A DNA stretch of 60,287 nucleotides from a virus (Duplodnaviria; Caudoviricetes), in the IMG/VR virus record IMGVR_UViG_3300025132_000036, positions 1-60,287 of that record, one strand, 5' to 3'. Position 1 is the first letter of the stretch; each line of letters starts with the position of its first letter. Below, one piece after another: positions 5,608-60,287 of this stretch. Under the pieces are notes generated by a model. That model did no database searches. It was not told the origin of the DNA and saw nothing but the letters and a program-made list of their open reading frames with translations. Position numbers and translations under genes: made by a program.

Positions 5608-7950
5608 ATGAACCGTTGGTCGAACATGCCGAGTCGTCGTGAGGGTGAGGCACGTGCCGATTATATGGCCCGGTGCATGGGAGATGCAGAGTCAGTCTCC
5701 AAGTACCCCGACGAAGCGCAAAGGTATGCCGTCTGCAACGGAATGGCGGACGAGAAGCAAGTTGAGGCGCTCCAGTACGGAAAGCCGGGAAAGAATGACC
5801 CTCGCAAGACTCCCGCCAAGCCATCTGAGCGACGCAAGGGCTCAAAGAAGAACAAGCCGGGTTCTGCAAAGAAACCGAACGCAGGCATCAAAGTCAGTAA
5901 GGAAACTGAGGCGCGACTTCGCTCGCTTATGTCGAAGCACAACTCTTCAGGCAAGGGGAGCAAAGCGAGCATGGGAATGCTCAAAACTGTGTACCGTCGC
6001 GGCGCTGGTGCTTTTAGCCGTAGCCATGCCCCCAACATGTCCCGTGGTGGATGGGGTATCGCACGAGTCAAAGCCTTCCTTTACCTGCTCAGGAATGGAC
6101 GACCAAGCAACCCGAACTATAAGCAAGACAATGATTTGCTCCCGCGGGGCCATCCCCGCAAGTCCGCCAAGGCTGATGAGGAAGGCGTCGAGGCCGCTGA
6201 GTACAACGGTAAGAAAGTCAGTCTTAACAAGCCCTTCCGTACACCCAAGGGACCAAAGAAGTTCGCCGTCTATGTGCAGAACGAGTCCGGTCGTGTCGTC
6301 ATTGTTCGCTTCGGTGACCCCAACATGGAAATCAAGCGTGATGACCCCGGTCGCCGCAAGAACTTCCGCAGCCGTCACAACTGCGACAACCCCGGTCCCA
6401 AGACCAAGGCACGATACTGGTCGTGCAAAATGTGGGAGCGCAGCAAGAGCGTGACCCAGTACACTTCCAACGAAAACCAAGAGGACGAACACGAGGCGCT
6501 CTCAGATGATTTGTGGTTTGACGTATGGAGCCAAAACGAAGGTGATGAAATGAGCGAAGAATACGCTGAGTTCTATGACGAATACGACGATGTAGTCGAG
6601 GCCGAAAGCGATGAAGCCTGCTGCGGGTCTTGTGCTGAACACGCCGAAGCGGAGATGATTCGCAAGGACGTGTTCGATAACCCCGGTCAGGCTGCGGGTC
6701 GTGCGAAAGACATTGGTTGCGAAGGCATTCACAGTCACAAAGAAGGCGAAGATACGGTGTTCATGCCGTGCGAAAGCCACGAAGAGTACACCAAGAAGAC
6801 TGGTGGCGATAAGGTCGCATCCTCCCCCTGTGGTGAGGGTGAAGAACTCATCGGTGGCGAGTGCGTTCGTGTAGCCGTCACCATGGAGATGGAGATTGAT
6901 GAGGTCACGACCCGTGTTGAAGCCGCTACCGGCAAGACCTACATTCGCATTTCCGGTGTCGCGTTCCATGAGGGCGTCAACAAGAACGGTTGGGGTGTTC
7001 GCCCTGCTCTCGCAAAGCGCCTCGCTGAAAAAGAAATGATGGGTGCCGACGTGACGCTCAACCACCCGAAGGCTGAGATGGGCCGATTCAAGCGTAACAT
7101 GGACGGCGGTGTTGATGAAGCCGTCGTTGGTACGGTCGTCAGCGCATCCTATCACGATGATGATGAGGACAAGGACCGGTATAAGGTTCGATACTCCGCT
7201 GAGATTGTGCGAGAAGAACTGTTTGCTTCTCTCGAGTCCGGTCTGTGGCTCAAGCCGGGGTACGGTGTGAGCATCGGCGGTACCGGCATCCCCTCCGAAG
7301 TGATGGAGGCTGACGAGCAGTACCCCCGTGGACAGATGTGGTTTGCCGACGAGTTCGACTTTGACCACCTCGCTATCGTCCACAAGCCTGCCTACCGTGA
7401 CGCCAACATCGAAAAGGTCGAGCGTGTGGAAGCAAATGAAGGAACTCTTAAGTACCGGTCCGCAGGTAGTACGCATCACCAACAGGTGAGCGAAATGACC
7501 GACACCGAGATTCCCATCGAAACTGACGCATCCGAACTCGAGGCGCTTCGCGCCGAACTCGTGCTGCGGGAAGCCCGCATTGCTGAGTTTGAAGCGGCCG
7601 ACATGGCCCGCGCCGAAGAGGGTCGCATGGCTCTCGTCACCCGCGCATCCGAACTCGGACTCAAGGGCCACGAAGACTTCGCGGCCGAGACCCTCACCAC
7701 GATGATTGCTTCGTGGGAGGCTGCTCGCCCCGCCGCTCCGGCCGTCGAGATGACGCCAGTCACCCCCGCGGAAGAGCCGGTCGCCGCAAGCGAGAAGTCC
7801 GAGCCAGTCGTGGCCTCGTACTTCAACGGCAAGATTATGGAAGTCCCCGAGACCCTCTATGCTCGCTGCTACAACTCATGGGCTCGCGCCTACAACAACG
7901 TGTTCGCGGGTCAGGAAAACACGAAGGCCCTGCTCTTCGAGGAACTCTGA
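5608..7950 (+). CDS. Multidomain prohead protease/scaffold protein
   Basis: HK97-type protease-like region (GVAFHEGVNKNG, LNHP, GVSIGG, DHLAIVHKPAY), C-terminal coiled coil, basic N-terminal modules; precedes capsid genes. Confidence 0.8.
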   Translation: MNRWSNMPSRREGEARADYMARCMGDAESVSKYPDEAQRYAVCNGMADEKQVEALQYGKPGKNDPRKTPAKPSERRKGSKKNKPGSAKKPNAGIKVSKETEARLRSLMSKHNSSGKGSKASMGMLKTVYRRGAGAFSRSHAPNMSRGGWGIARVKAFLYLLRNGRPSNPNYKQDNDLLPRGHPRKSAKADEEGVEAAEYNGKKVSLNKPFRTPKGPKKFAVYVQNESGRVVIVRFGDPNMEIKRDDPGRRKNFRSRHNCDNPGPKTKARYWSCKMWERSKSVTQYTSNENQEDEHEALSDDLWFDVWSQNEGDEMSEEYAEFYDEYDDVVEAESDEACCGSCAEHAEAEMIRKDVFDNPGQAAGRAKDIGCEGIHSHKEGEDTVFMPCESHEEYTKKTGGDKVASSPCGEGEELIGGECVRVAVTMEMEIDEVTTRVEAATGKTYIRISGVAFHEGVNKNGWGVRPALAKRLAEKEMMGADVTLNHPKAEMGRFKRNMDGGVDEAVVGTVVSASYHDDDEDKDRYKVRYSAEIVREELFASLESGLWLKPGYGVSIGGTGIPSEVMEADEQYPRGQMWFADEFDFDHLAIVHKPAYRDANIEKVERVEANEGTLKYRSAGSTHHQQVSEMTDTEIPIETDASELEALRAELVLREARIAEFEAADMARAEEGRMALVTRASELGLKGHEDFAAETLTTMIASWEAARPAAPAVEMTPVTPAEEPVAASEKSEPVVASYFNGKIMEVPETLYARCYNSWARAYNNVFAGQENTKALLFEEL

Positions 7951-50406: not shown

Positions 50407-51833
50407 GCCACCACCTCCGCACGGACACGACCACCAAGGGTGGTCTGCTTGTTGCCCCTGAACTCGCCGTGACGCTTGACCTTGCCCGTCACCTTGTGTG
50501 CGCCCAAGCCGGGCGGTGCGGTGGTGAACCACGACACATGGTTGCCCTCCGTGGTCACGAAGGACACGGCGTTGGAGCGTCCGTATGAGCCGTCGAAGGG
50601 GCGCACGGCGGTGACCTCACCGGTCAGCGTCACCTTGTCCCCCACAGAGCCGATGTGCTCGGAGGCCACCCCGTCCACCGCAGGCAGGCGCTCAGCGAGT
50701 GCCTCACGGGCCTCGCGCTTGAGGTTGCGGCGATAGCCGGAGATGGCTCCCATGAACAGGTTGCACGTCTTGAGGGTCACGACACCGGCTTGGAGCACCG
50801 CACGCAGGGAGGCTCCGAAGGAGCCGGTGGCGGCTCGCATGGAGTCGAGCAGCCCCTCGGGTGTGCCGAACCACGCAGGCTCGTCCCCACGGTCAGGCAG
50901 GTCGTACGCCGCCAAGGGCCACACCTCGATGTGCTCCTCAGCGATGGTCGGAATCATGTGGGGTCGCTCGTCAGGGTCACGAACGGCGTACCGAAGGCTT
51001 GTCTGGTTGGCCTTCAGCGTGTTGTTCCAGTACCGGGTCGTCGCTCGGGGGTTCGGGGGTGTCCACACACCACCGTGCTCGTCCACGAACATGCGCTCGT
51101 GGTCGAACAGGAGGCGACCACGGCCACGGGCATATGACTCGCCTTGCAGGAGCATGGTGAGGCGCACGGCCTCCGTGACCTCAGCGACCTTGCGTTGGCG
51201 TCGTCCGCCGTAAGAGAAGCCGTCCCACATGAGGGTCCGCACGTTCACCATGTTCATGGCCATGTCGCCGGTCACGCCCATGTAGTCGAACAGGCACGAG
51301 GTGCCGATGTTGCGTACCTCGCCTGTGTCCTTGTGGCGCAGCAGCACGGTCTTGAGCCGACCACGGGCACCGGAGGTGCAATGGTCACACCGGTCGTGGA
51401 ACACGACGGCAGGTCCCTCACGGGTACGCACGGTCGGCACGTACGAGGGCATGTCCTCGTGTCCCTGCTCGTCCGGGGCGGCACGCCACACACCGGGGCG
51501 TGACCCCGATTCGTTGGGGTTGGCGGGCTCGACGGTGCCGAGGATGGTCCACGGGGTGTCTGCACCGGGCCAATGGGCCACGGTCACGTCCCTGACCATG
51601 CGGCCGTACGTGTCCTCGCTGATGGGCAGGTATGAGCGGCGACGACGCCACCCGGAAATGCGGGTCTTCAGCACCTTGGCGGTGATGGTCTCAAGGTACG
51701 GGTCACCGACCTCGTACGTGAGCGGGGTCGCACCACGGCGCTCGGACATGCCCACGAGGCGCTTCAGGAGCGACTCCACGTGGTCCCACACGGCCATGGG
51801 CACGGTGTACGTCACGGGTCCGTCCTCAGTCAT
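50403..51833 (-). CDS. Phage-type protein with Zn site and C-terminal OB fold
   Basis: 'CDHC...R.R.KT...IGTSCL.DY.G'; C-terminal 'HIGSVGDKV...GKVKRH.EFRG.KQT'. Confidence 0.75.
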   Translation of the reverse strand: MTEDGPVTYTVPMAVWDHVESLLKRLVGMSERRGATPLTYEVGDPYLETITAKVLKTRISGWRRRRSYLPISEDTYGRMVRDVTVAHWPGADTPWTILGTVEPANPNESGSRPGVWRAAPDEQGHEDMPSYVPTVRTREGPAVVFHDRCDHCTSGARGRLKTVLLRHKDTGEVRNIGTSCLFDYMGVTGDMAMNMVNVRTLMWDGFSYGGRRQRKVAEVTEAVRLTMLLQGESYARGRGRLLFDHERMFVDEHGGVWTPPNPRATTRYWNNTLKANQTSLRYAVRDPDERPHMIPTIAEEHIEVWPLAAYDLPDRGDEPAWFGTPEGLLDSMRAATGSFGASLRAVLQAGVVTLKTCNLFMGAISGYRRNLKREAREALAERLPAVDGVASEHIGSVGDKVTLTGEVTAVRPFDGSYGRSNAVSFVTTEGNHVSWFTTAPPGLGAHKVTGKVKRHGEFRGNKQTTLGGRVRAEVVA

Positions 51834-51958
51834 GCGTCCACCTCATCAGCACAGTCCTCGCACAGAGAGCGCGACCATCCGTCTGCTCCCTTGACCATGA
51901 TGTGAAGGTCTTCGTGGACCTGTTGGTTGCATCCGACGCAAAGGTAGTCTCGGCTCAT
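51830..51958 (-). CDS. Zn-finger microprotein (42 aa)
   Basis: CVGC...CEDC. Confidence 0.6.
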   Translation of the reverse strand: MSRDYLCVGCNQQVHEDLHIMVKGADGWSRSLCEDCADEVDA

Positions 51959-52089
51959 GCGTCCACCTCCTCGCAAGCGGGGCAGAAGCCGCCACCGTAC
52001 GTGATATCCCTTCGGCAACCGTCACACACGAGAACGCTGATGGCGTCCACACCGTCGGGGGTCATGCCGACCGTCATCCACGTGCTCAT
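51955..52089 (-). CDS. Zn-finger microprotein (44 aa)
   Basis: CDGC...CPAC. Confidence 0.6.
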   Translation of the reverse strand: MSTWMTVGMTPDGVDAISVLVCDGCRRDITYGGGFCPACEEVDA

Positions 52090-52655
52090 CCGAGCACCTC
52101 CGCATGGAAGTCCGGGGTACGGACATGGAGGGAACGGAGGCCGGGGGCACCGTTGACGACCCAATCGCCGTCGTAGCGCGGGTCTGTGGGGTCATGCAGG
52201 CTCACATGGGCAACGAAGCCGATTTCGGTACGGTGTTGGGCCAAGTGAATGCTCGTCCACCTCTGCTCGATGGCTTCGCCATCCTTGACCACGTACCCTG
52301 CATCCACGAGGGCGGCGCACCATCCGGGCAAGTCATCGGCCGAGAAGTTCAGTTCGTCCGTGAAGGAGCGGGGTCGCATGGGTCCCTTGCTCACTTGCGC
52401 ACCCCCACGAGGGTGAACGAGCCGCTCGCCATTGAGGGTGCGGTCCATCGGAGCACGGTGAACTTTGGGTCGGCTGAACTCACGAAGGAAGCCACGGAGT
52501 GGCGGCGCAAGTTCGTGACCACGGTCTTGTGGTTCCGGTGATGCGGATTCGGAGAATCCGAAATCCACGTCACGACTCGGGATGGAGTCTCGACAACGTG
52601 GAGGGCGGTCGGTGGGTTGGGGCGTGTTGGTTCTGCGGTTCGTCGCATGGTTCAT
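52086..52655 (-). CDS. Hypothetical protein (start uncertain; could be near 52379)
   Basis: Open frame downstream of the promoter at 52671-52680. Confidence 0.5.
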   Translation of the reverse strand: MNHATNRRTNTPQPTDRPPRCRDSIPSRDVDFGFSESASPEPQDRGHELAPPLRGFLREFSRPKVHRAPMDRTLNGERLVHPRGGAQVSKGPMRPRSFTDELNFSADDLPGWCAALVDAGYVVKDGEAIEQRWTSIHLAQHRTEIGFVAHVSLHDPTDPRYDGDWVVNGAPGLRSLHVRTPDFHAEVLG

Positions 52656-53276
52656 CGGAGCAGCGGGAGGGATATAAACCTGTGGCCGTTGGGTCGGTTA
52701 TAAGGGGCAGGGTGGTGAACCGATAGGTTGCGCCGATGGAGAGGGCTATGTTGAGGTCGTCTATGGGCCGGTCGGTGCCGGGATGGCCGACGGGGCGGAG
52801 AAACGAGCCTCTCGCTATAAGCACGTACTCGCGTACGCGATTAGGGTAGTCCCCCGCACGAGCGTATGCCCTACCCATCCACAGGCAACGGCGACGATTT
52901 TCAGGCCGGGGTCTTTCCCTGAATTTGGGGCGAAATTCGGTTTGATACCCGTACGTGGTGGTGGAATGGCCCTCAGCCATTCCCGTACATGCGGCGCACA
53001 GGCGCGTACCCGCCTACAGGAATTGGTGGTCACACCAATTCCCCACTTTTCGGAAAACCGACCTCTCCTCAGATGGCCCCCGCGCAAAGTCTTCCTTAAG
53101 ACTGGCCGCAGAAAAAAAAGCGATACCCTCCACTTGATATTTCGGAGTTGGGTGTGCTGTTTCATAAACTACGTGAAAAGCGGACAATCAGCGTCAATCT
53201 GCACAAATCCCCTGTATGGTCGCGCCAAGCGGCGTTAGGGTGCGTGATGCACCGGGAGCGCAGGGGGATTCACACC

Positions 53277-53315
53277 CTATCTGCACTTAGCGCAACGGCA
53301 GTTCTGCGGGCACAT
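53277..53315 (-). CDS. 12-aa Cys-rich micropeptide MCPQNCRCAKCR
   Basis: Strong AGGAGGTGA RBS 4 nt upstream of the ATG. Confidence 0.4.
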   Translation of the reverse strand: MCPQNCRCAKCR

Positions 53316-53319
53316 CTTA

Positions 53320-53662
53320 TCACCTCCTGTGTGCTTGTGAATGCGGGGGACCCCCCGATGCCGCAGCACCGAGGGGTCCGGTCTCACCTGTCGTAATGCA
53401 GGCGTGTTGTGTTGGGGACGGACGGGTGGTTCACCACCGGGGCCACATCTCGTTGGCGCTCTTGAGCCAAAGGTGCGGTCCCTCTTGTCCGTCTGTGCCG
53501 ACGCCCATGAAGGCTTCAACGGCTGCGGTGACGATTTGACTTCGCTCAAAGCCATGCTTCGAGCAATAGTCGTCAATCATCATTCGCACCCAGTCGGGTA
53601 CTTCAATGGACACCGGGTCGGTTTCGTTGTTCGTTATGTTTTCACCTCCTGTGTGCTTGTGA
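53320..53662. repeat. 21-bp direct repeat TCACCTCCTGTGTGCTTGTGA (53320-53340 and 53642-53662)
   Basis: Exact match; contains the RBS on the - strand. Confidence 0.9.
53431..53637 (-). CDS. Ribbon-helix-helix transcription regulator (start ATA 53637 or GTG 53613)
   Basis: 'VSIEVPDWVRMMIDDYCSKHGFERSQIVTAAVEAFM' RHH pattern; AGGAGGTGA RBS. Confidence 0.7.
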   Translation of the reverse strand: MTNNETDPVSIEVPDWVRMMIDDYCSKHGFERSQIVTAAVEAFMGVGTDGQEGPHLWLKSANEMWPRW

Positions 53663-53786
53663 GTAGGGGGCTGTTGTTGTCCCGGTCAGCCTCCGGGCGG
53701 TGGGTCTCACCGATTGGGCGCGGCGTGATGCCGCCTGTACCCTTGTTGGGGTACCTTGTTAGTACACGTCAGGGCGAATGCCTACC

Positions 53787-54422
53787 TCAGTAGGACACGG
53801 GCGCTTCAGGCCAGAAGTCCGTCAGGTCGAGCGAGTCCACCCGAAGATGGTACTGGTTCTCGGTCATCAGGGAATGGATGCCGCCAACCTGCTTCCAGTC
53901 GAACATCGGCTCGGGGATGCAGGCGTAGGCTTCGGCCATGATTTCCACGGTCCCGTCGGGCAGGGGCATGGGGTCATAGTGGGGGGAAGCCCACTCATCC
54001 ACACCGAACCAAACGGTTCCGGGTTGCACACGCACCGGGAGCCAGAGGCGACCGAAGTCCGCCATCTGTTCGGCTTTGAGCCGCGCGGCCTCCGTCAGGG
54101 CGTTGACGATGGGCTTTGGAAGCCACACCATTTCGGCGGTGTTGACGCCGAACGTCTTGCCTTCGGGATGGTTTGGCCGGTAGCGGTTGGGGTTCGCCGA
54201 GTCAAAGAGCCCAAAGGACTCGTTGCGGACGAACGCGAGCAACCGCTGGGTGCTCCACCATTCTTGGTGCGTCGTGGTCATGTCCGGCGCAAAATGGCCG
54301 GAACCGGTTGGTGGCGTCAGGAAGGACACCAACCACATGACGTGCAAGCGCACGTTTTCAATCAGTCCCACGCTTGCTGCGTGGGAAGCATTCACCTCGT
54401 TCTGTACAGTCTTCTCAGACAT
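53787..54422 (-). CDS. Hypothetical protein (211 aa)
   Basis: ORF on the coding strand after a structured intergenic region. Confidence 0.65.
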   Translation of the reverse strand: MSEKTVQNEVNASHAASVGLIENVRLHVMWLVSFLTPPTGSGHFAPDMTTTHQEWWSTQRLLAFVRNESFGLFDSANPNRYRPNHPEGKTFGVNTAEMVWLPKPIVNALTEAARLKAEQMADFGRLWLPVRVQPGTVWFGVDEWASPHYDPMPLPDGTVEIMAEAYACIPEPMFDWKQVGGIHSLMTENQYHLRVDSLDLTDFWPEAPVSY

Positions 54423-54645
54423 GTGGTGCTGCCTGCCCCCTGAAGGGCAGAACAGTCACCTGTTGAGAAGGGGTGGCCACAGGGATGGCCGATGCTCACC
54501 CTGAATCTGCCCTTGCGGGCTTACTCGGCTTCGTTGAGAGGCCGGAGACTTGGGGGGGCTACCCACCCCGGCATTCCGGGCGAGGGTGGGTAGCGGTCTC
54601 GTCAGTCACAATGCTGACGTGTGTGCGTGTTGACGCTTACTCTGC

Positions 54646-57474
54646 TCAGCGGAGCCAACGCATGTCGCGGTAGTCGTCCGTCGCCCAGTTCCACTTCTCG
54701 GAGAAGAAGTCCTCGTCCAGAGACTGGTCGAGGTGGTCACGGGCGTGGCCGGCCGCAAGGTCTGCGTCTGCATCACGGTAGTCGCCCTTGGCGACCCACG
54801 ACCAATCAAGGTCTTGTTGGGACCAGATATCCACGTACAGGGAGCGGGGCAGTTCGTATTCCACAATGTGGTCCTCGTCCACCGCCGTTTGTCCCCGGTG
54901 CGTGTTTGCGTCGTAGCCGTCGTACCACTCGCCTTCATGGATGAAGGGAGGCCATCCGACGTAACCGAAGTCAGCCACACCTGCCTCGATGGCCGCGTCC
55001 TGCGCGGCAACTTGAAGCGCGTTGCGGTCAGCAACGGACACCTTGGGCGTCAGGTCAAGCGCACAGTTGTCCGCATTGCCGGAGGCTTTGCGGGGCTTGC
55101 TCCACGACCAACGGGTGTTTTGCCCGTAGGTGGTGGCGTAGGTGCGCCAGTCGTACGACGTGGCTGCGGTCTGGGCCGAGCCGGCAATGTCGCGGGAGGT
55201 AATCGCACCCGAAGGCGTGATTGTGTAGTGGCGACCAATGACGCATTCGTACACGGAAGCCAGTTCCTTGCCGAAGGCGTCTTCGAGGTGCGCGGTAGTG
55301 CTGCCGACCACAACAGGACCGGTGGTCTTGTCGCGGAGCCGACCGAACGAGAGTGGGTTGCCCCCGTTCGTCCAGAAGTGCAGGTGGTCAGGTTGGTCGC
55401 GGTCTGCCCAGATGAGGGACATGCTGCCCTTTGCGTACTTGACTACGGTTTCAATGCCGCCCACCTCGAGGGCTGCGGCCACCGCTTGAGAGTCAACATC
55501 GCCAGTTGGCTCGACCTTGATTCCTGCCCACACGTCTTCGTAGTTGTGAACGACGCCGTTGTGGACCAACACCACGCGCTCGTTGTGAGAGGCGTGGGGG
55601 TGCGCGTTTTCGGGCGTGTTTGCACCGTGCGTTGCGTACCGCGTGTGGACCATGGACCAGTTGATGTTCGTCTGCCCGAGTTGCTTGACCGTCTTGGCGG
55701 TGTACTTCTCGAGCGACTCGGCATGTGCAGCGACGCGCCATGTACGCAGGCCGTCCTTGCTGCGGATAGCCCACCCGGCTGCTTGTCCACCCCGCGAGGC
55801 GAGGAGGGTGTGCAACTTGGCGAGCCACTTGCCCTTGACGAACTTGCGGTTGTTTGCACGGTGGATGGCTCCAATGCCGCAGCCCACAATCAGGGCAGCG
55901 GCGGCAACCCATGAGCCGAAGCCCATGAGAAGGGACAAGAGTCCGAGCGCCGTGGCGTCCAACGAAAACTGGGACCACGAGAGGTGGTCGTCTGGGTCTT
56001 GGCCTGCGGCCTCCGCACAGCGCGTACAACCGCCTCGGAAGTACACAACGCTGAGTTCCGTATCTTGAGGGGTGAGTTCAAGGGTACAACCGAACTGCTC
56101 GTGCATGTATTCCTGAACACCCAAGGTGGCCAGTTCAGACCCGCAATCGTCGCATTGGATGTAGGGGTGCGCTTCGTACAGGGCATTGCGTCGTTCCACC
56201 GACAGTTGGTCGAGGTAGTACATGCGGCCGGGCACCCACAGGGAGTCCCCACCGCTCATCAGGCCCTGCAACGTCGCCGTGTTTGCGGTAGCGAGGGTTG
56301 GGTCTGTGTCCATCCATGGCCACTCGGGCTCAGGACCCTCATTCGCAAGGTGACGTGCGCGTGCTTCCCAGAACTGCATCTCCGGGTCATCCTCGGACAG
56401 ACCGAGGTAGTCCCGAATAGCAGCGATGCTGCTGAAGTAGGAGTCGCGTGTCTGAACGCTGCGGCGTTTCTTGGTCACATGACCGGCCGCCCAGTCCCAC
56501 CACGCATCTTCATCCATGGAACGCTGCACCATCAGGTAGCACAGTCGAATCCATGCGTACATCTTGTTCGAGTTCACGGTGCCTTGGTGGAGTCGGAACT
56601 CCACGGTGCCGTAACTTTCGAGGCAGGTCAGACGGACAGGCAGGTACCGGTCAGTACCGATGACCCGCCAAATGTCGCTGTACACGGCGCTCTTGACGTT
56701 GGGGTTCATCTCTGAGAGCGGCTTGTCCTTGGACCATCCGAACAGAGACTTCATGCCCCGTGGGTTGCTGTTGTCGAGCGCCTTTGCGACCTTCACCGTC
56801 TTGCTCGTCGGGCTGTAGTGGGTGTCGGGTCCTGCGGCACTCTTGATATCCCGTAGGTTCCGAGCGCCGGAGTAACTGTTGATGCCCGTCTTGGTGCGAC
56901 GGCTTGGGCTGACGATTGACTCGAAAGCACCAAACAAAATGTAGTACGCAATCGCAGTACGCATTCCCACACCCTTTGCCTGCTCGAAGGACACGGGGCC
57001 GTTGTTGTTGTTGTCGAAAGACCCGTTGTGGTCACGCAGCCCGATGTGGACGTGCATGCCGCACGAGGTATCAACCCCGAGCACTCCTGAAGCAGAGCGA
57101 CCAATGGCCCGCACGTAGTTTCGGATTCGTCCCCAACCGTGAAGCGGGGGAGACACGATTTCCGCGCTGCCGTACGACCCGCCGTTGAGCGAGGAGTCGG
57201 TGACGATTTTGGTATTCGTCATGGTACGATGTGAGTACCCCTCGTCTTGTGCGTGGACGTAGCCGTCGCTCGTCATGCGCAGGTACTGCGCAAGGGTGAC
57301 GTTGTTGAACTCAGCGGCCCGCTTGCGGACCTCCAGTTCCAACCCCGCTCGAGCGACCATTCGGTCGTGGTGCTTGGTTCCAATCCAAGCGACGCCAACT
57401 GCTGCCGTGAGCACAAAGGCCCAGAGCATGGGAAGCAGAGTAAGCGCCATGTTAATGTCTGTGGTTGCAGACAT
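54646..57474 (-). CDS. Amidoligase (COOH-NH2 ligase) fused to class II glutamine amidotransferase, with hydrophobic segments
   Basis: GLELE, 'VTDSSL', 'EIVSPPL', 'SCGMHVH', 'TVEFRLHQGT'; then CGI, 'SRG..AAG', 'HTRYATHG', 'NAHP', 'HNG', 'VDSQ'. Confidence 0.9.
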   Translation of the reverse strand: MSATTDINMALTLLPMLWAFVLTAAVGVAWIGTKHHDRMVARAGLELEVRKRAAEFNNVTLAQYLRMTSDGYVHAQDEGYSHRTMTNTKIVTDSSLNGGSYGSAEIVSPPLHGWGRIRNYVRAIGRSASGVLGVDTSCGMHVHIGLRDHNGSFDNNNNGPVSFEQAKGVGMRTAIAYYILFGAFESIVSPSRRTKTGINSYSGARNLRDIKSAAGPDTHYSPTSKTVKVAKALDNSNPRGMKSLFGWSKDKPLSEMNPNVKSAVYSDIWRVIGTDRYLPVRLTCLESYGTVEFRLHQGTVNSNKMYAWIRLCYLMVQRSMDEDAWWDWAAGHVTKKRRSVQTRDSYFSSIAAIRDYLGLSEDDPEMQFWEARARHLANEGPEPEWPWMDTDPTLATANTATLQGLMSGGDSLWVPGRMYYLDQLSVERRNALYEAHPYIQCDDCGSELATLGVQEYMHEQFGCTLELTPQDTELSVVYFRGGCTRCAEAAGQDPDDHLSWSQFSLDATALGLLSLLMGFGSWVAAAALIVGCGIGAIHRANNRKFVKGKWLAKLHTLLASRGGQAAGWAIRSKDGLRTWRVAAHAESLEKYTAKTVKQLGQTNINWSMVHTRYATHGANTPENAHPHASHNERVVLVHNGVVHNYEDVWAGIKVEPTGDVDSQAVAAALEVGGIETVVKYAKGSMSLIWADRDQPDHLHFWTNGGNPLSFGRLRDKTTGPVVVGSTTAHLEDAFGKELASVYECVIGRHYTITPSGAITSRDIAGSAQTAATSYDWRTYATTYGQNTRWSWSKPRKASGNADNCALDLTPKVSVADRNALQVAAQDAAIEAGVADFGYVGWPPFIHEGEWYDGYDANTHRGQTAVDEDHIVEYELPRSLYVDIWSQQDLDWSWVAKGDYRDADADLAAGHARDHLDQSLDEDFFSEKWNWATDDYRDMRWLR

Positions 57475-58385
57475 GTAGCATCCCTCCTTGGGAACCCGAG
57501 ATGGGCCGTAGCCGTTGGGTCGCGTTGCGTTATCTCGGATGGTCGCGCAACGAAGGACGTATGGTAGGTATCTGTATTACTGCCTGACGACGTGCGTACG
57601 TGCCTTAGTACGCCATGGACCGTATCTGTATCAACGGTCACTCTGTCGGGGCCGAAGCCGGGACAGTCGGGGGAGAGGTCTGACGGGCAGTTCTGGCTGC
57701 ACGTCCTCCCGAGCGAGTCTGCTTACATGTCTTCGCTTGCGCGGTGCCTCCGGTGTTTGTTTGGACCAATGCCGTAAATCTGTGGAGGCTGATTCTGTGC
57801 CGAGGACCTTATCCCTCGTTTGTCTGACTCGCTCTCTTGTCGTCAGGCGTCATGTACCCACTTGAGTGCGGTTTGTTTGGACCATCTGTTTGCCGTAGCA
57901 TCCAGTACGTCTGTGAGTAGGTGGGCTCCGGTATCTGTTGAAACCATCATCGCCCGTACAGGGGGGTGCCGCCGGTCTGTTGGGACCGGCGAACATGACG
58001 CTGATTTTCTGAGGTGGGAGTCTTCATTGCTCGATGCTCTTACGTCATCTTTTACGCTCTGTTTGCACAGTTCGCGTACCTCCATGCTCCCGTCGGTCCT
58101 GCTTGCACCGCAGCCTGCTCGTTCACACAGGGGTATCTGGCTCGGACTCTTGTCCACCTCAGTTTAGCCACTATATCATCCGGCACCCTTGGGTCCTGCT
58201 GCGTCCGTGCAAGTGGACCACAACACCACAAGGGTGCGTGTTTGCCTCAGAAGGGTGCCGTCAAAGCGGCTTGTTAGGATGCGATGGGGACCAGTCCGAA
58301 GGACCAACCCCCACCCCGTCGCCGGGTCGTGTAACCGTCCACACAACCACGCCGCCGGTGAGGGGTCGTCGCTGCTCGGGTATGA
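57455..58385 (-). ncRNA. Candidate large structured non-coding RNA / giant 5' leader
   Basis: No credible ORF; TATA promoter at 58406-58415; cUUCGg x2, GCAA tetraloop, several 9-10 bp long-range stems, recurrent ACAGA. Confidence 0.7.
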
Positions 58386-58404
58386 TAGGCCATCCGAGGG
58401 GTCC

Positions 58405-58416
58405 CATATAAACCCA
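58405..58416 (-). promoter_or_regulatory. TATA promoter GGGTTTATAT
   Basis: Same motif as at 46408-46417 and 49774-49783, and nearly so at 52672-52680. Confidence 0.7.
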
Positions 58417-58817
58417 TGCAATTGGGAAAACGTGGTACTGCGAGCAAGATCTCCCAAAAACGGCCGTTTCGGAGGGGCCGCCGGTCGGGGCCGGAGAGGG
58501 GCCGCCGGGAGGGTCGTCAACGGTGGGTTCAAGAGGGGGGCCGTGGTGGGGTGACCATGGGCCGACGGCACCCGTTCGGAGCGACGGAGGGAGGGCATGA
58601 GTTCCCCTCCTGAGAGGCCCTCTCTCCTCTCCTCAGATGGTGGGTCGTCGTGTTTCCCTAAGACTAATATAACCTCTCTCCCACGGAATAATCTCTCTCC
58701 CATATGTACACACCACACAGACCACACCACACGGGGCGCAGGGTACCACAGGAGGGCCACAGGAGGGCCGAAACGACCGAAGCGCGGGTTGATATAGCCC
58801 AACGTGGTGGGAGGGGC

Positions 58818-59291
58818 ATGAGCCGACCAAAGCCCACCGCCAAGCCCACCCGATTCAAGCACCGCTTCGGCTTCCGCCATGGGTGGGCCGTAGTGGCCCA
58901 CTACACCCCGAAGCAATCGAAGACCGTCATCCACGGCCACCGCAAAGACGGCCACTTCAAGAACTTCAGCAACGTCACCGGCAGCGGTTCCGTCCTCACC
59001 CTCAGCCTCCGCCGTGGAGGCCAGAAGCGCGGCACCACGAAGGTCATCGGGGCCAACGCCGACAACCTCGCAGCCCACCTCAACGCTTACCGGTCCAACG
59101 CCGTCCCACACGCCGCCCTGTGGCCCGTCATCGGTCGCCGCTCCGGTGCCTACGGTCGCCGGTCGTGGGGCACCGACACCTCGCACCCAACGAAGCACAT
59201 GGAGAACCACGACGACACCCGAACCACCCCGTACCGGTTCAAGGACTGGATGGGTGCGGTGTGGCTGACCCCGGAGGTCGCCGAGGAGTGA
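58818..59291 (+). CDS. Basic early protein, paralog A
   Basis: ATG 29 nt after the start of TTGATATA; similar to 59510-60109. Confidence 0.75.
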   Translation: MSRPKPTAKPTRFKHRFGFRHGWAVVAHYTPKQSKTVIHGHRKDGHFKNFSNVTGSGSVLTLSLRRGGQKRGTTKVIGANADNLAAHLNAYRSNAVPHAALWPVIGRRSGAYGRRSWGTDTSHPTKHMENHDDTRTTPYRFKDWMGAVWLTPEVAEE

Positions 59292-59356
59292 GGGGCACCG
59301 CCCGGAGGGAATCCCCTCCTCTCTCCTTTCGGTACCTCTCCCGAGGTGCCGTTAGG

Positions 59357-59399
59357 AAGACTGTTCCTTACTTAACGTATGAAATCTCTCTCCCATATG
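59357..59399. repeat. Intergenic repeat elements of the early cassettes
   Basis: 23 bp at 59357-59379 equals 13-35 (60201-60223); 17 bp at 59383-59399 equals 58690-58706. Confidence 0.9.
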
Positions 59400-59509
59400 G
59401 GGGCGCACACCTACCCCTCCCCGCCGAGCCGAGGGGTAGCCGAGCACCCCATAGAAGGGGAGCATCAGCCCGGCCGTGGGTTGATATAGGACCACACCGT
59501 CGGAGGAGC

Positions 59510-60109
59510 ATGAGCCGCCGCCGCGACCCCAACAAGCCCCTGCCTATGACCAAGACCACCATCACGCCCGAAACCAACGACAAGGGCAAGCCCATGCGGA
59601 AGAAGGGCGAACTGACCTTCAGCACCAAGAAGGCCCGCTTCGTCGTCAAGTTCGACTATCAGCCCACCTTCAGCACCACCGTCGAACGCCGCCACCACAA
59701 GCACGGCGCACCGAAGAACTATCACACCCGCACCGGGTCCGGGTCCAACCTCCGGGTGACCATCGGCAAGATGCAGCGCGGACGGTGGACGACCATCCGA
59801 AGCCGTGAGTTCACCGGCACCCTTGCAGACGGTTGGTTCGCCGACCTGTGGGACGCTTCGATGCCGGGTCGGGATGTGTGGGCCTTCTGGTCCCTGTTCA
59901 AGCCCAAGGGCCGCATGTGGACCACCGAGCGAACCGGCGAGGACACCACCCACGAGTACCGCGTGACCGAGAACGACGACCCAACCCGCCGCGTCCCCTT
60001 CAGCGAGAAGTCCACCTTCCAAGACGGCCAGAAGTCGGCGATGTGGAACACCCCCCACGTTGACGACAAGTCCCCCAAGGCCGAGGCATGGAGGCGTGGC
60101 GAGATGTGA
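59510..60109 (+). CDS. Basic early protein, paralog B
   Basis: ATG 29 nt after the start of TTGATATA; shares the TGSGS motif with paralog A. Confidence 0.75.
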   Translation: MSRRRDPNKPLPMTKTTITPETNDKGKPMRKKGELTFSTKKARFVVKFDYQPTFSTTVERRHHKHGAPKNYHTRTGSGSNLRVTIGKMQRGRWTTIRSREFTGTLADGWFADLWDASMPGRDVWAFWSLFKPKGRMWTTERTGEDTTHEYRVTENDDPTRRVPFSEKSTFQDGQKSAMWNTPHVDDKSPKAEAWRRGEM

Positions 60110-60188
60110 GGGGGACACCTCCCGCCGCCGCCGCCGGGGGGCCTGCCGCAGCAGGTCCCCCATTTCTTCTTCAGATGCTCTCTCCAAA

Positions 60189-60287
60189 GACGCCGTAGGA
60201 AAGACTGTTCCTTACTTAACGTAATATCTCTCTCTCCTATCTCTCTCACACAGGTCGCGCGTACGCACCCAGTATGCACATAGGGGA
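60189..60287. repeat. Terminal direct repeat (copy 2)
   Basis: Identical to 1-99. Confidence 0.95.

Follow-up and report, generated by a model that had tools for sequence, protein, structure and literature searches.

What occupies the roughly 930 nucleotides (nt) that separate a promoter from the first gene behind it in the genome of a tailed virus? The question is raised by IMG/VR record IMGVR_UViG_3300025132_000036 (Duplodnaviria; Caudoviricetes), of which we analyzed the whole stretch of 60,287 nt, hereafter the window. On its minus strand, a promoter word at 58405-58415 lies about 930 nt ahead of the ATG of an amidoligase gene. A preliminary description, made from the sequence alone, had proposed that this interval either specifies a new large viral noncoding RNA or serves the amidoligase gene as a giant regulatory leader. 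Our analysis supports this proposal, and the sequence favors the leader: combining fold, substitution and codon tests, we put at about 0.55 the probability that positions 57475-58383 (minus strand; about 909 nt of predicted transcript) form the structured noncoding 5' leader RNA of the first leftward transcription unit in an archaeal-type tailed virus.

The 60,287-bp record represents a complete virus genome, with direct terminal repeats at its ends, a G+C content of 0.52 to 0.66 and no tRNA genes. Genes for a large terminase subunit and for portal, tape-measure and tail-fiber proteins, found together with a family-B DNA polymerase and a repair exonuclease, identify it as that of a tailed virus. 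The 11-nt word GGGTTKATATR has nine matches in the window, versus 1.14 expected, a number reached in none of 100 shuffles. Six copies other than that of the leader sit 21 to 48 nt before a start codon, and one (49768, plus strand) has no assigned gene; two copies stand 21 nt before an ATG, in a leaderless arrangement, and four stand 35 to 48 nt before an ATG that carries GGAG(G) upstream. This combination of word and spacing is that of archaeal TATA-box promoters. Since, in addition, the best matches of the DNA polymerase among phage records are haloarchaeal tailed viruses (23 to 24% identity), we accept on sequence grounds that the virus is of archaeal type, in line with the preliminary description, and it probably infects marine archaea.

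The leader promoter, GGGTTTATATG, is one of these nine matches, a TATA-like box with a G-rich 5' flank on the minus strand at 58405-58415, as had been described, and its core, GGTTTATATGGGAC, does not differ between the window and the two related metagenome contigs that cover the region (L025 and L027). The spacing of 21 to 22 nt between promoter and start at two leaderless genes places the predicted transcript start near 58383 and thus gives the leader its length of about 909 nt. Alone among the nine promoter words, this one is followed by more than 900 nt before any coding start. Positions 57475-58383 constitute the largest coding-free gap, and 57475-58703 is the longest gap that a crude gene map shows for the genome.

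At its downstream end, the leader reaches a Shine-Dalgarno sequence, GGAGG (57483-57487, minus strand), which lies 8 nt before the ATG at 57472-57474 and is conserved in L025 and L027. The open reading frame (ORF) that follows (54646-57474, minus strand) is the first gene of the leftward operon and encodes a 942-amino-acid fusion of Amidoligase_2 and a class-II glutamine amidotransferase (GATase), with matches to Pfam PF12224 at 1.8e-13 and PF13522 at 1e-13 and to the GATase and amidoligase families of PHROG. This ORF is led by GGAGG and has no promoter word of its own before it, and an internal TATA-like word of the leader (58166-58181) was not retained in L025 or L027. No run of four or more T residues occurs on the minus strand between 58427 and 56939; the first long run, T8 at 53112-53119, lies behind the next genes. 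The last minus-strand run of at least five T residues before it is a T5 at 58456-58460, located behind a GGCC...GGCC hairpin just upstream of the leader promoter, where it may serve as a terminator-like insulator. A low U content was dropped as a leader-specific trait, the entire leftward coding strand having 16 to 19% T.

The region had been described as about 900 nt without a credible ORF downstream of a promoter, and the codon tests bear this out. All 14 ORFs of at least 45 codons that overlap the leader gave negative codon-usage log-odds (-3.5 to -40), compared to +257 for the amidoligase gene and +54 for the next gene. In a three-way alignment of the window, L025 and L027, insertions and deletions (indels) of 1, 2, 4, 5, 10 and 11 nt are scattered along the leader, and the leader substitutions are distributed over the three phases as 35/29/22 and 32/35/26, that is, without 3-periodicity. 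Since the indels break reading frames and the substitutions lack periodicity, a long protein is excluded. No long reading frame survives in L025 or L027, so that the homologs hold no conserved ORF of that kind, and none of the signs of protein coding that we looked for in the leader (a frame kept open, codon-like substitutions and codon usage) was found.

The amidoligase protein has relatives of 63%, 41 to 43% and 33% identity. Sequence collections were scanned with protein alignments, and the metagenome scan gave three contigs, of which L025 and L027 span the upstream region. By blastn and global alignment, identity was 81 to 98% from 59127 to about 57400, reaching 93 to 98% to L025 over 57600-57999, and then 50 to 85% through the amidoligase ORF. 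Leader divergence was thus about 9 to 10% (86 substitutions in 931 nt for L025, or 0.092, and 93 in 931 nt for L027), while the adjacent coding sequence showed 329 substitutions in 1,164 nt. Compared with synonymous divergence, which was 0.233 as pS (17.8 of 76.7 synonymous sites; dS, 0.28) in the upstream gene of the shared block and 0.81 as dS in the amidoligase gene, the value of 0.092 means that the rate of change in the leader is about one-third of that at synonymous sites of its own block and about one-eighth of that at synonymous sites of the amidoligase gene. These rates argue that the leader is a real, selectively maintained noncoding element.

The leader of L027 carries an insert of 254 to 260 nt at window position 57874-57879, exactly at the border of the two leader domains described below. 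The insert (L027:886-1035) contains GGAGG, a 49-codon ORF in sense orientation, whose predicted product is basic, helix-like and without a Pfam or PHROG family, and, behind the ORF, a G+C-rich hairpin; no TATA or promoter word was found in it. The leader therefore tolerates a gene cassette at its domain border, and a sense-oriented insert without a promoter makes sense if the region is transcribed through.

Folding energies were better than those of dinucleotide shuffles, more so on the sense strand. For the entire stretch, z was -3.69 in sense versus -1.84 in antisense orientation (20 shuffles each), and with 60 shuffles the corresponding values were -3.66 versus -1.39 for the 3' half and -2.12 versus -1.00 for the 5' half. 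For the substitution test, we used a fold computed from the window leader alone (maximum pair span of 200 nt, 264 pairs), chosen to avoid circularity, and compared the changes in the relatives with the same substitutions redistributed among positions with the same base. On the sense strand, 18 pairs were broken in L025 and 18 in L027, versus 30.9 and 35.0 expected, and none of 1,000 shuffles was as low. The result held when shuffling was restricted to blocks of 60 or 100 nt (18 broken pairs versus 30.7 to 34.0, with none of 2,000 shuffles as low). Double, that is, compensatory, changes numbered 4 in each relative versus about 1 expected (p of 0.014 and 0.019; 0.014 to 0.045 overall). On the antisense strand, 23 to 26 pairs were broken versus 26.6 to 28.6 expected (p of 0.07 to 0.5), and the 5 to 6 double changes were significant, as expected for G-C/A-U swaps. 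A coding control, the first 1,164 nt of the ORF, gave 134 broken pairs versus 130.5 expected and 12 double changes versus 10.5. A second control, comprising the 3' part of the ORF and downstream DNA, gave 189 broken pairs versus 211 (p of 0.006) and contains a conserved spacer.

When pairs were counted on the window fold, both sides had changed in 5 of them versus 1.7 in shuffles (1 of 500 reached 5), and in 0 to 1 when the fold was slid to six other positions; RNAalifold on the alignment gave 9 pairs changed on both sides among 295. The preliminary description had proposed covariation and a comparison with dinucleotide shuffles as checks, and both speak for an RNA fold: 5 double changes versus 1.7, 18 broken pairs versus 31 to 34 on the sense strand only, and the sense z of -3.69. 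Taken together, these comparisons of sequences support the structure of the leader in outline, not in detail.

In the predicted structure, hairpins and junctions connected by A/C-rich linkers make up the two domains of the leader. The 5' domain (57880-58383, minus strand) is the more variable. It includes a long hairpin (58283-58315) that is capped by UUCG in the window, has CUUG at its tip in L025 and is shortened in L027, a helix with a U-A to C-G change (58166-58172/58265-58271) and a hairpin with a GNRA loop (58053-58078; UACGC...CUGU-GCAA-ACAG...GCGUA). The last reads CUGC-GUAA-GCAG in L025, where the closing pair has changed from U-A to C-G and the loop is still GNRA. A further compensated change in the alignment converts CACC/GGUG to CGCC/GGCG at 58219-58240. 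The 3' domain (57475-57879, minus strand) is predicted to contain a multihelix junction, a second UUCG hairpin (57643-57666) and loops bearing the word ACAGA.

The following elements named in the preliminary description are present in the sequence. The two cUUCGg hairpins were located at 58296-58301 and 57652-57657, the CUGU-GCAA-ACAG hairpin at 58059-58070, and the stems at 58181-58190/58251-58260 (10 bp), 58009-58017/58154-58162 (9 bp) and 57847-57855/57993-58001 (9 bp); two more stems proved slightly longer than had been noted (57970-57977/57984-57991 and 57494-57502/57532-57540). CTTCGG has 71 matches in the window over both strands, about 0.6 per kb per strand, and at such a frequency genome-wide, its two occurrences in 0.9 kb do not by themselves exceed chance; the tetraloop count was therefore dropped as evidence. 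A pairing of the leader ends (ACCCGAG at 58373-58379 with CUCGGGU at 57494-57500) was likewise dropped, its 5' arm not being retained in L027. RNAalifold paired 57989-58001 with 57437-57449 (minus strand), that is, 13 nt of the leader with amidoligase codons 9 to 13. This segment of the leader can form a perfect helix with 57847-57855 as well; both partners being invariant, covariation has no bearing on either pairing.

The layout of promoter, long ORF-poor stretch and amidoligase gene is seen again in at least 17 further virus loci. Scanning viral contigs yielded 23 loci, 15 of which (L002 to L016) encode near-full-length amidoligase relatives of 30 to 45% identity; their G+C content is 0.44 to 0.53, and several come from records of 55 to 63 kb. 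An ORF-poor stretch precedes the ATG in all 15, and a TATA-like word lies 375 to 1,221 nt upstream of the ATG in 14, none having been found in L009. Among these distant leaders, sequence blocks are shared within subgroups. Six pairs of distant loci were put through the same substitution test; for the most diverged pairs the alignment is uncertain, and their numbers carry less weight. Excess compensatory change was found in four of the six pairs, with 7 double changes versus 0.57 expected in L012/L013 (where 15 pairs were broken versus 31.2), 34 versus 15.4 in L008/L009, 38 versus 21.6 in L014/L015 and 16 versus 9.05 in L002/L005 (p of 0.008). In the three long-leader pairs the signal was retained under block shuffling. 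Six coding controls showed no excess compensatory change, two of them having slightly fewer broken pairs (p of 0.019 and 0.052). These comparisons suggest that a long structured leader before the amidoligase gene is a trait of the virus group and that its sequence is free to be replaced.

Two side observations concern these relatives. A 65-nt block (about L012:7190-7260 and its counterparts in L013 and L014; alignment columns 1213-1287) is nearly identical in leaders that otherwise differ by 25 to 30%. It has no Rfam match and is a candidate for a compact functional RNA motif, such as a pseudoknot or a ribozyme. Separately, an 8,966-bp sequence from the genome collection (L030) carries the amidoligase gene and a leader of the group-A type and is binned in a bacterial metagenome-assembled genome (MAG); it is probably a misbinned virus fragment and not evidence on the host.

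We favor a leader over a separate gene because neither a U-tract nor a second promoter precedes the Shine-Dalgarno-led ORF and because the L027 insert is promoterless and in sense orientation. Host RNA polymerase would start some 22 nt past the TATA-like box at 58405-58415, cross the leader without meeting a U-tract and continue into the amidoligase/GATase gene and the genes behind it. The leader might then act on or with its own transcript, and our guess is that it influences the stability, processing or translation of an early operon; equally as a guess, its ACAGA loops could be docking sites for a protein. Related viruses have a promoter, a long structured leader and the amidoligase in the same order, with a leader sequence that is replaced beyond recognition.

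Several observations weigh against this interpretation. The block of high identity from 59127 to about 57400 spans the upstream gene (58818-59291) and the DNA between the promoters, making a mosaic block a real alternative, and the low divergence of the leader may be due in part to recent mosaic sharing. Only three sequences of this leader type are at hand, two of them close to each other, and independent substitution events are accordingly few. Of the 39 helices, 28 never vary, including most in the middle and 3' part, which covariation therefore neither supports nor refutes. Of the pairs in the consensus fold, 22 are disrupted in one relative or more, a single hairpin-tip deletion accounting for 9 of these, and the 10-bp stem 58181-58190/58251-58260 has an A.A mismatch in L025 and L027. 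A predicted CGUCCUU/AGGGAUG pairing covers the Shine-Dalgarno sequence, but the pairing probability of the latter is 0.41 in the window and ranges from 0.30 to 0.96 over 17 loci, so that a common helix hiding it is not consistently supported by the models. Among the distant relatives, L003/L004 (10 double changes versus 5.4 expected; p of 0.038) and L010/L016 (6 versus 5.1; not significant) gave weak or no signal, and in three of the six pairs the leader diverges as fast as the coding sequence or faster. An nhmmer profile of the three leaders found nothing better than E 0.042 in the 23 other loci, at the L007 promoter; in view of this lack of sequence similarity, common descent of the leaders is deduced from their position alone. 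Finally, a 43-codon frame at 57638-57769 may encode a microprotein or be open by chance, its changes being too few to decide.

It is conceivable, though on balance doubtful, that the same promoter instead yields a stand-alone large noncoding RNA acting in trans, which would be released by processing or act as the 5' part of the message. Possible roles would be those of a protein scaffold or sponge, via the ACAGA loops, or of a multimeric RNA particle like the large phage RNAs. The size of the element and its 93 to 98% identity over 57600-57999 exceed the needs of pairing alone, and its two domains tolerate an inserted gene, as independent modules would. Other spacers of the leftward operon are also better conserved than the genes (88 to 92% identity to L025/L026 versus 50 to 85%). 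They lie on the minus strand at 54423-54645 (88 to 90% to both L025 and L026), 53614-53786 and 53112-53348, and part of 52656-53430 has 91% identity to L026; these spacers could represent additional conserved RNA modules within this message.

The word ACAGA is the most enriched 5-mer of the leader and fits such a role. Ten copies cluster at 57571-58062 on the sense (minus) strand, versus 0.55 expected from the rest of that strand, and the other strand has none (Poisson probability of 3e-10 before correction for 1,024 words). Eight of the ten are identical in both L025 and L027, and three lie in predicted hairpin loops (57970-57991, 57929-57946 and 57615-57641), most of the others being in predicted linkers. 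CsrB/RsmZ-type sponge RNAs titrate CsrA through many GGA loops, and the leader is like them in having a short word repeated about 10 times on one strand, several times in predicted hairpin loops; many copies of a short word in loops or single strands, the mark of a sponge, are thus present in the form of ACAGA as far as loops are predicted. The differences are that the word is ACAGA instead of GGA, that the leader is predicted to be cotranscribed with an operon, that the partner protein is known for CsrB (CsrA) and none is for ACAGA, and that ACAGA is limited to this leader type.

Against a trans-acting RNA stands, first, this restriction: the leaders of the 15 distant relatives hold 0 to 2 copies of ACAGA each and show no enrichment. 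No candidate binding protein was found, the neighboring genes having no Pfam or PHROG family. Neither a terminator-like U-tract nor a recognized self-cleaving ribozyme lies between leader and ORF. At E values up to 10, the twister model RF03160 had no match in the window (9 candidates scored) or in 14 of 15 related records and only a 12-nt partial match (E 3.58) in the fifteenth, although such models may miss very divergent forms. The other twister model, RF02684, had one match in the window (E 0.25; 11.9 bits), at 6367-6407, outside the leftward operon. We infer that ACAGA is a word specific to this lineage at which a protein docks or tertiary contacts form.

An element acting as DNA, that is, a control region or replication origin between divergent blocks, with ACAGA as direct-repeat sites and the hairpins incidental or formed in single-stranded DNA, is improbable. 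The locus does sit where leftward genes give way to rightward ones, some 2 kb from the right terminal repeat, the interpromoter DNA (58416-58817) is equally conserved (88 to 93%), and short words repeated in one orientation are typical of iterons. However, the sparing of pairs is strand specific (18 broken versus 31 to 34 in sense, 23 to 26 versus 27 in antisense orientation), the tetraloops have changed without leaving the stable RNA classes (GCAA to GUAA, UUCG to CUUG), no A+T-rich unwinding stretch is present (G+C of 0.585 to 0.611), and the element lies downstream of the promoter, inside the part predicted to be transcribed.

Small protein genes, whose coding constraint would explain the conservation, are a still poorer account. 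Two short sense frames, the 43-codon frame named above and one of 26 codons (57947-58027), are open in all three sequences, and the former has an ATG start in L027 and 4 synonymous versus 4 nonsynonymous codon changes, slightly more synonymous than by chance. Both are open only because the region hardly varies, however; the 26-codon frame has 0 synonymous and 3 nonsynonymous changes, neither frame has an upstream GGAGG or a promoter word, the two together make up less than one-quarter of the conserved stretch, and longer frames have negative codon scores and are broken by indels in the relatives. A functionless spacer, part of a 1.7-kb block recently exchanged among viruses and folding by chance in a G+C-rich sequence, would account for the sharp fall of identity at about 57400, inside the ORF and not at its border, as at a recombination junction, and for the moderate z-scores (-2.1 to -3.7), but it is very hard to reconcile with synonymous sites of the upstream gene in the block being three times more diverged (pS of 0.233 versus 0.092), with substitutions that avoid breaking pairs on one strand only and with independent lineages that keep long leaders with compensatory change.

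The structured leader was then compared with known RNAs. At the gathering threshold, Rfam 15 gave no match in the entire window or in 17 related loci, in a scan that took in GOLLD, ROOL, OLE, HEARO, the IMES RNAs and the glutamine riboswitches. An Rfam match, which by the preliminary description would have removed the novelty of an RNA that it had not recognized as GOLLD or ROOL, was thus not obtained. At E values up to 10, only chance-level matches were obtained, namely, mir-995 (E 0.6) within 57300-58600 and four others in 51500-60287, none of them on the leader. None of the aptamer models in Rfam matched the leader, the L012 leader gave nothing credible with Rfam, and blastn of the leader against phage records found no match. 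Exact-pattern scans had no matches in viral contigs (two patterns) or genome contigs (one pattern). In our literature searches, no account of an RNA of this kind came up for archaeal viruses, and PMC13108676 describes none. Passages on amidoligase in PMC11706807 mention the amidoligase and GATase genes of a Poseidoniales virus and no noncoding RNA.

GOLLD and ROOL often adjoin tRNA genes. They are large "ornate" structured RNAs (10.1101/2024.12.08.627333) of phages, prophages and bacteria and constitute Rfam families. The leader resembles them as a structured noncoding RNA of several hundred nucleotides, of unknown function, found by sequence analysis in a tailed virus. It differs in having no Rfam match in the window or the 17 loci, in the archaeal-type host domain and in leading a protein-coding operon, whereas GOLLD and ROOL are free-standing.

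Long regulatory 5' leaders are known as well, among them riboswitch, T-box, attenuator and phage early-operon leaders. The leader of the window shares with these its place behind a promoter and ahead of a Shine-Dalgarno-led first gene, without an intervening terminator, and a structure kept while the sequence drifts between lineages. It differs in being 3 to 10 times longer than known riboswitch leaders, in matching no aptamer family and in having no consistent Shine-Dalgarno-sequestering helix. It thus resembles GOLLD and ROOL by size and viral setting, regulatory leaders by position and sponges by its loop word; no Rfam model matches, and we assign it to none of them.

On the other side of the leader promoter, a divergent promoter word, GGGTTGATATA (58786-58796, plus strand), serves a leaderless gene for a 157-amino-acid protein (58818-59291). 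This gene and a second one on the plus strand (59510-60109) have identical promoter words, are both leaderless and encode basic proteins without any family. The protein of 58818-59291 has 87% identity in L025. The two genes look like distant paralogs, since the second, used as a tblastn query, matches the first in L025 at 31%. The small proteins flanking the leader were not found in the distant loci by tblastn and match no Pfam or PHROG family. CT/GA-rich tracts occur upstream of promoters in the window (58669-58706, 59383-59399 and 60225-60254, plus strand). The distant relatives L002 to L011 have (GA)n tracts of 20 to 46 nt on the amidoligase strand, about 500 to 750 nt upstream of the ORF, and a doubled CCTATCATGAACGG word comes after them; such tracts appear to be a shared upstream control feature.

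Large structured noncoding RNAs are rare, and new classes have tended to reveal new biochemistry. To our knowledge, as far as literature searches and Rfam go, the large RNAs tied to viruses (GOLLD and ROOL) are all bacterial. Most archaeal messages are leaderless or have short leaders, and a 0.9-kb leader under selection several-fold stronger than that on synonymous sites is therefore unexpected. As a speculation that we hold only tentatively, these RNAs could be the first class of large (0.35 to 1.2 kb) functional structured RNAs in archaeal viruses, a fast-evolving module always placed before a membrane amidoligase/GATase gene and, more than a simple untranslated region, acting in trans as a protein-binding or self-assembling particle in early infection, here via some 10 ACAGA loops. 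The further loci that share the layout, at least 17, provide a ready comparative set. If the leader regulates or accompanies the amidoligase/GATase operon, it would offer a handle on the role of a widespread and unexplained pair of viral enzymes.

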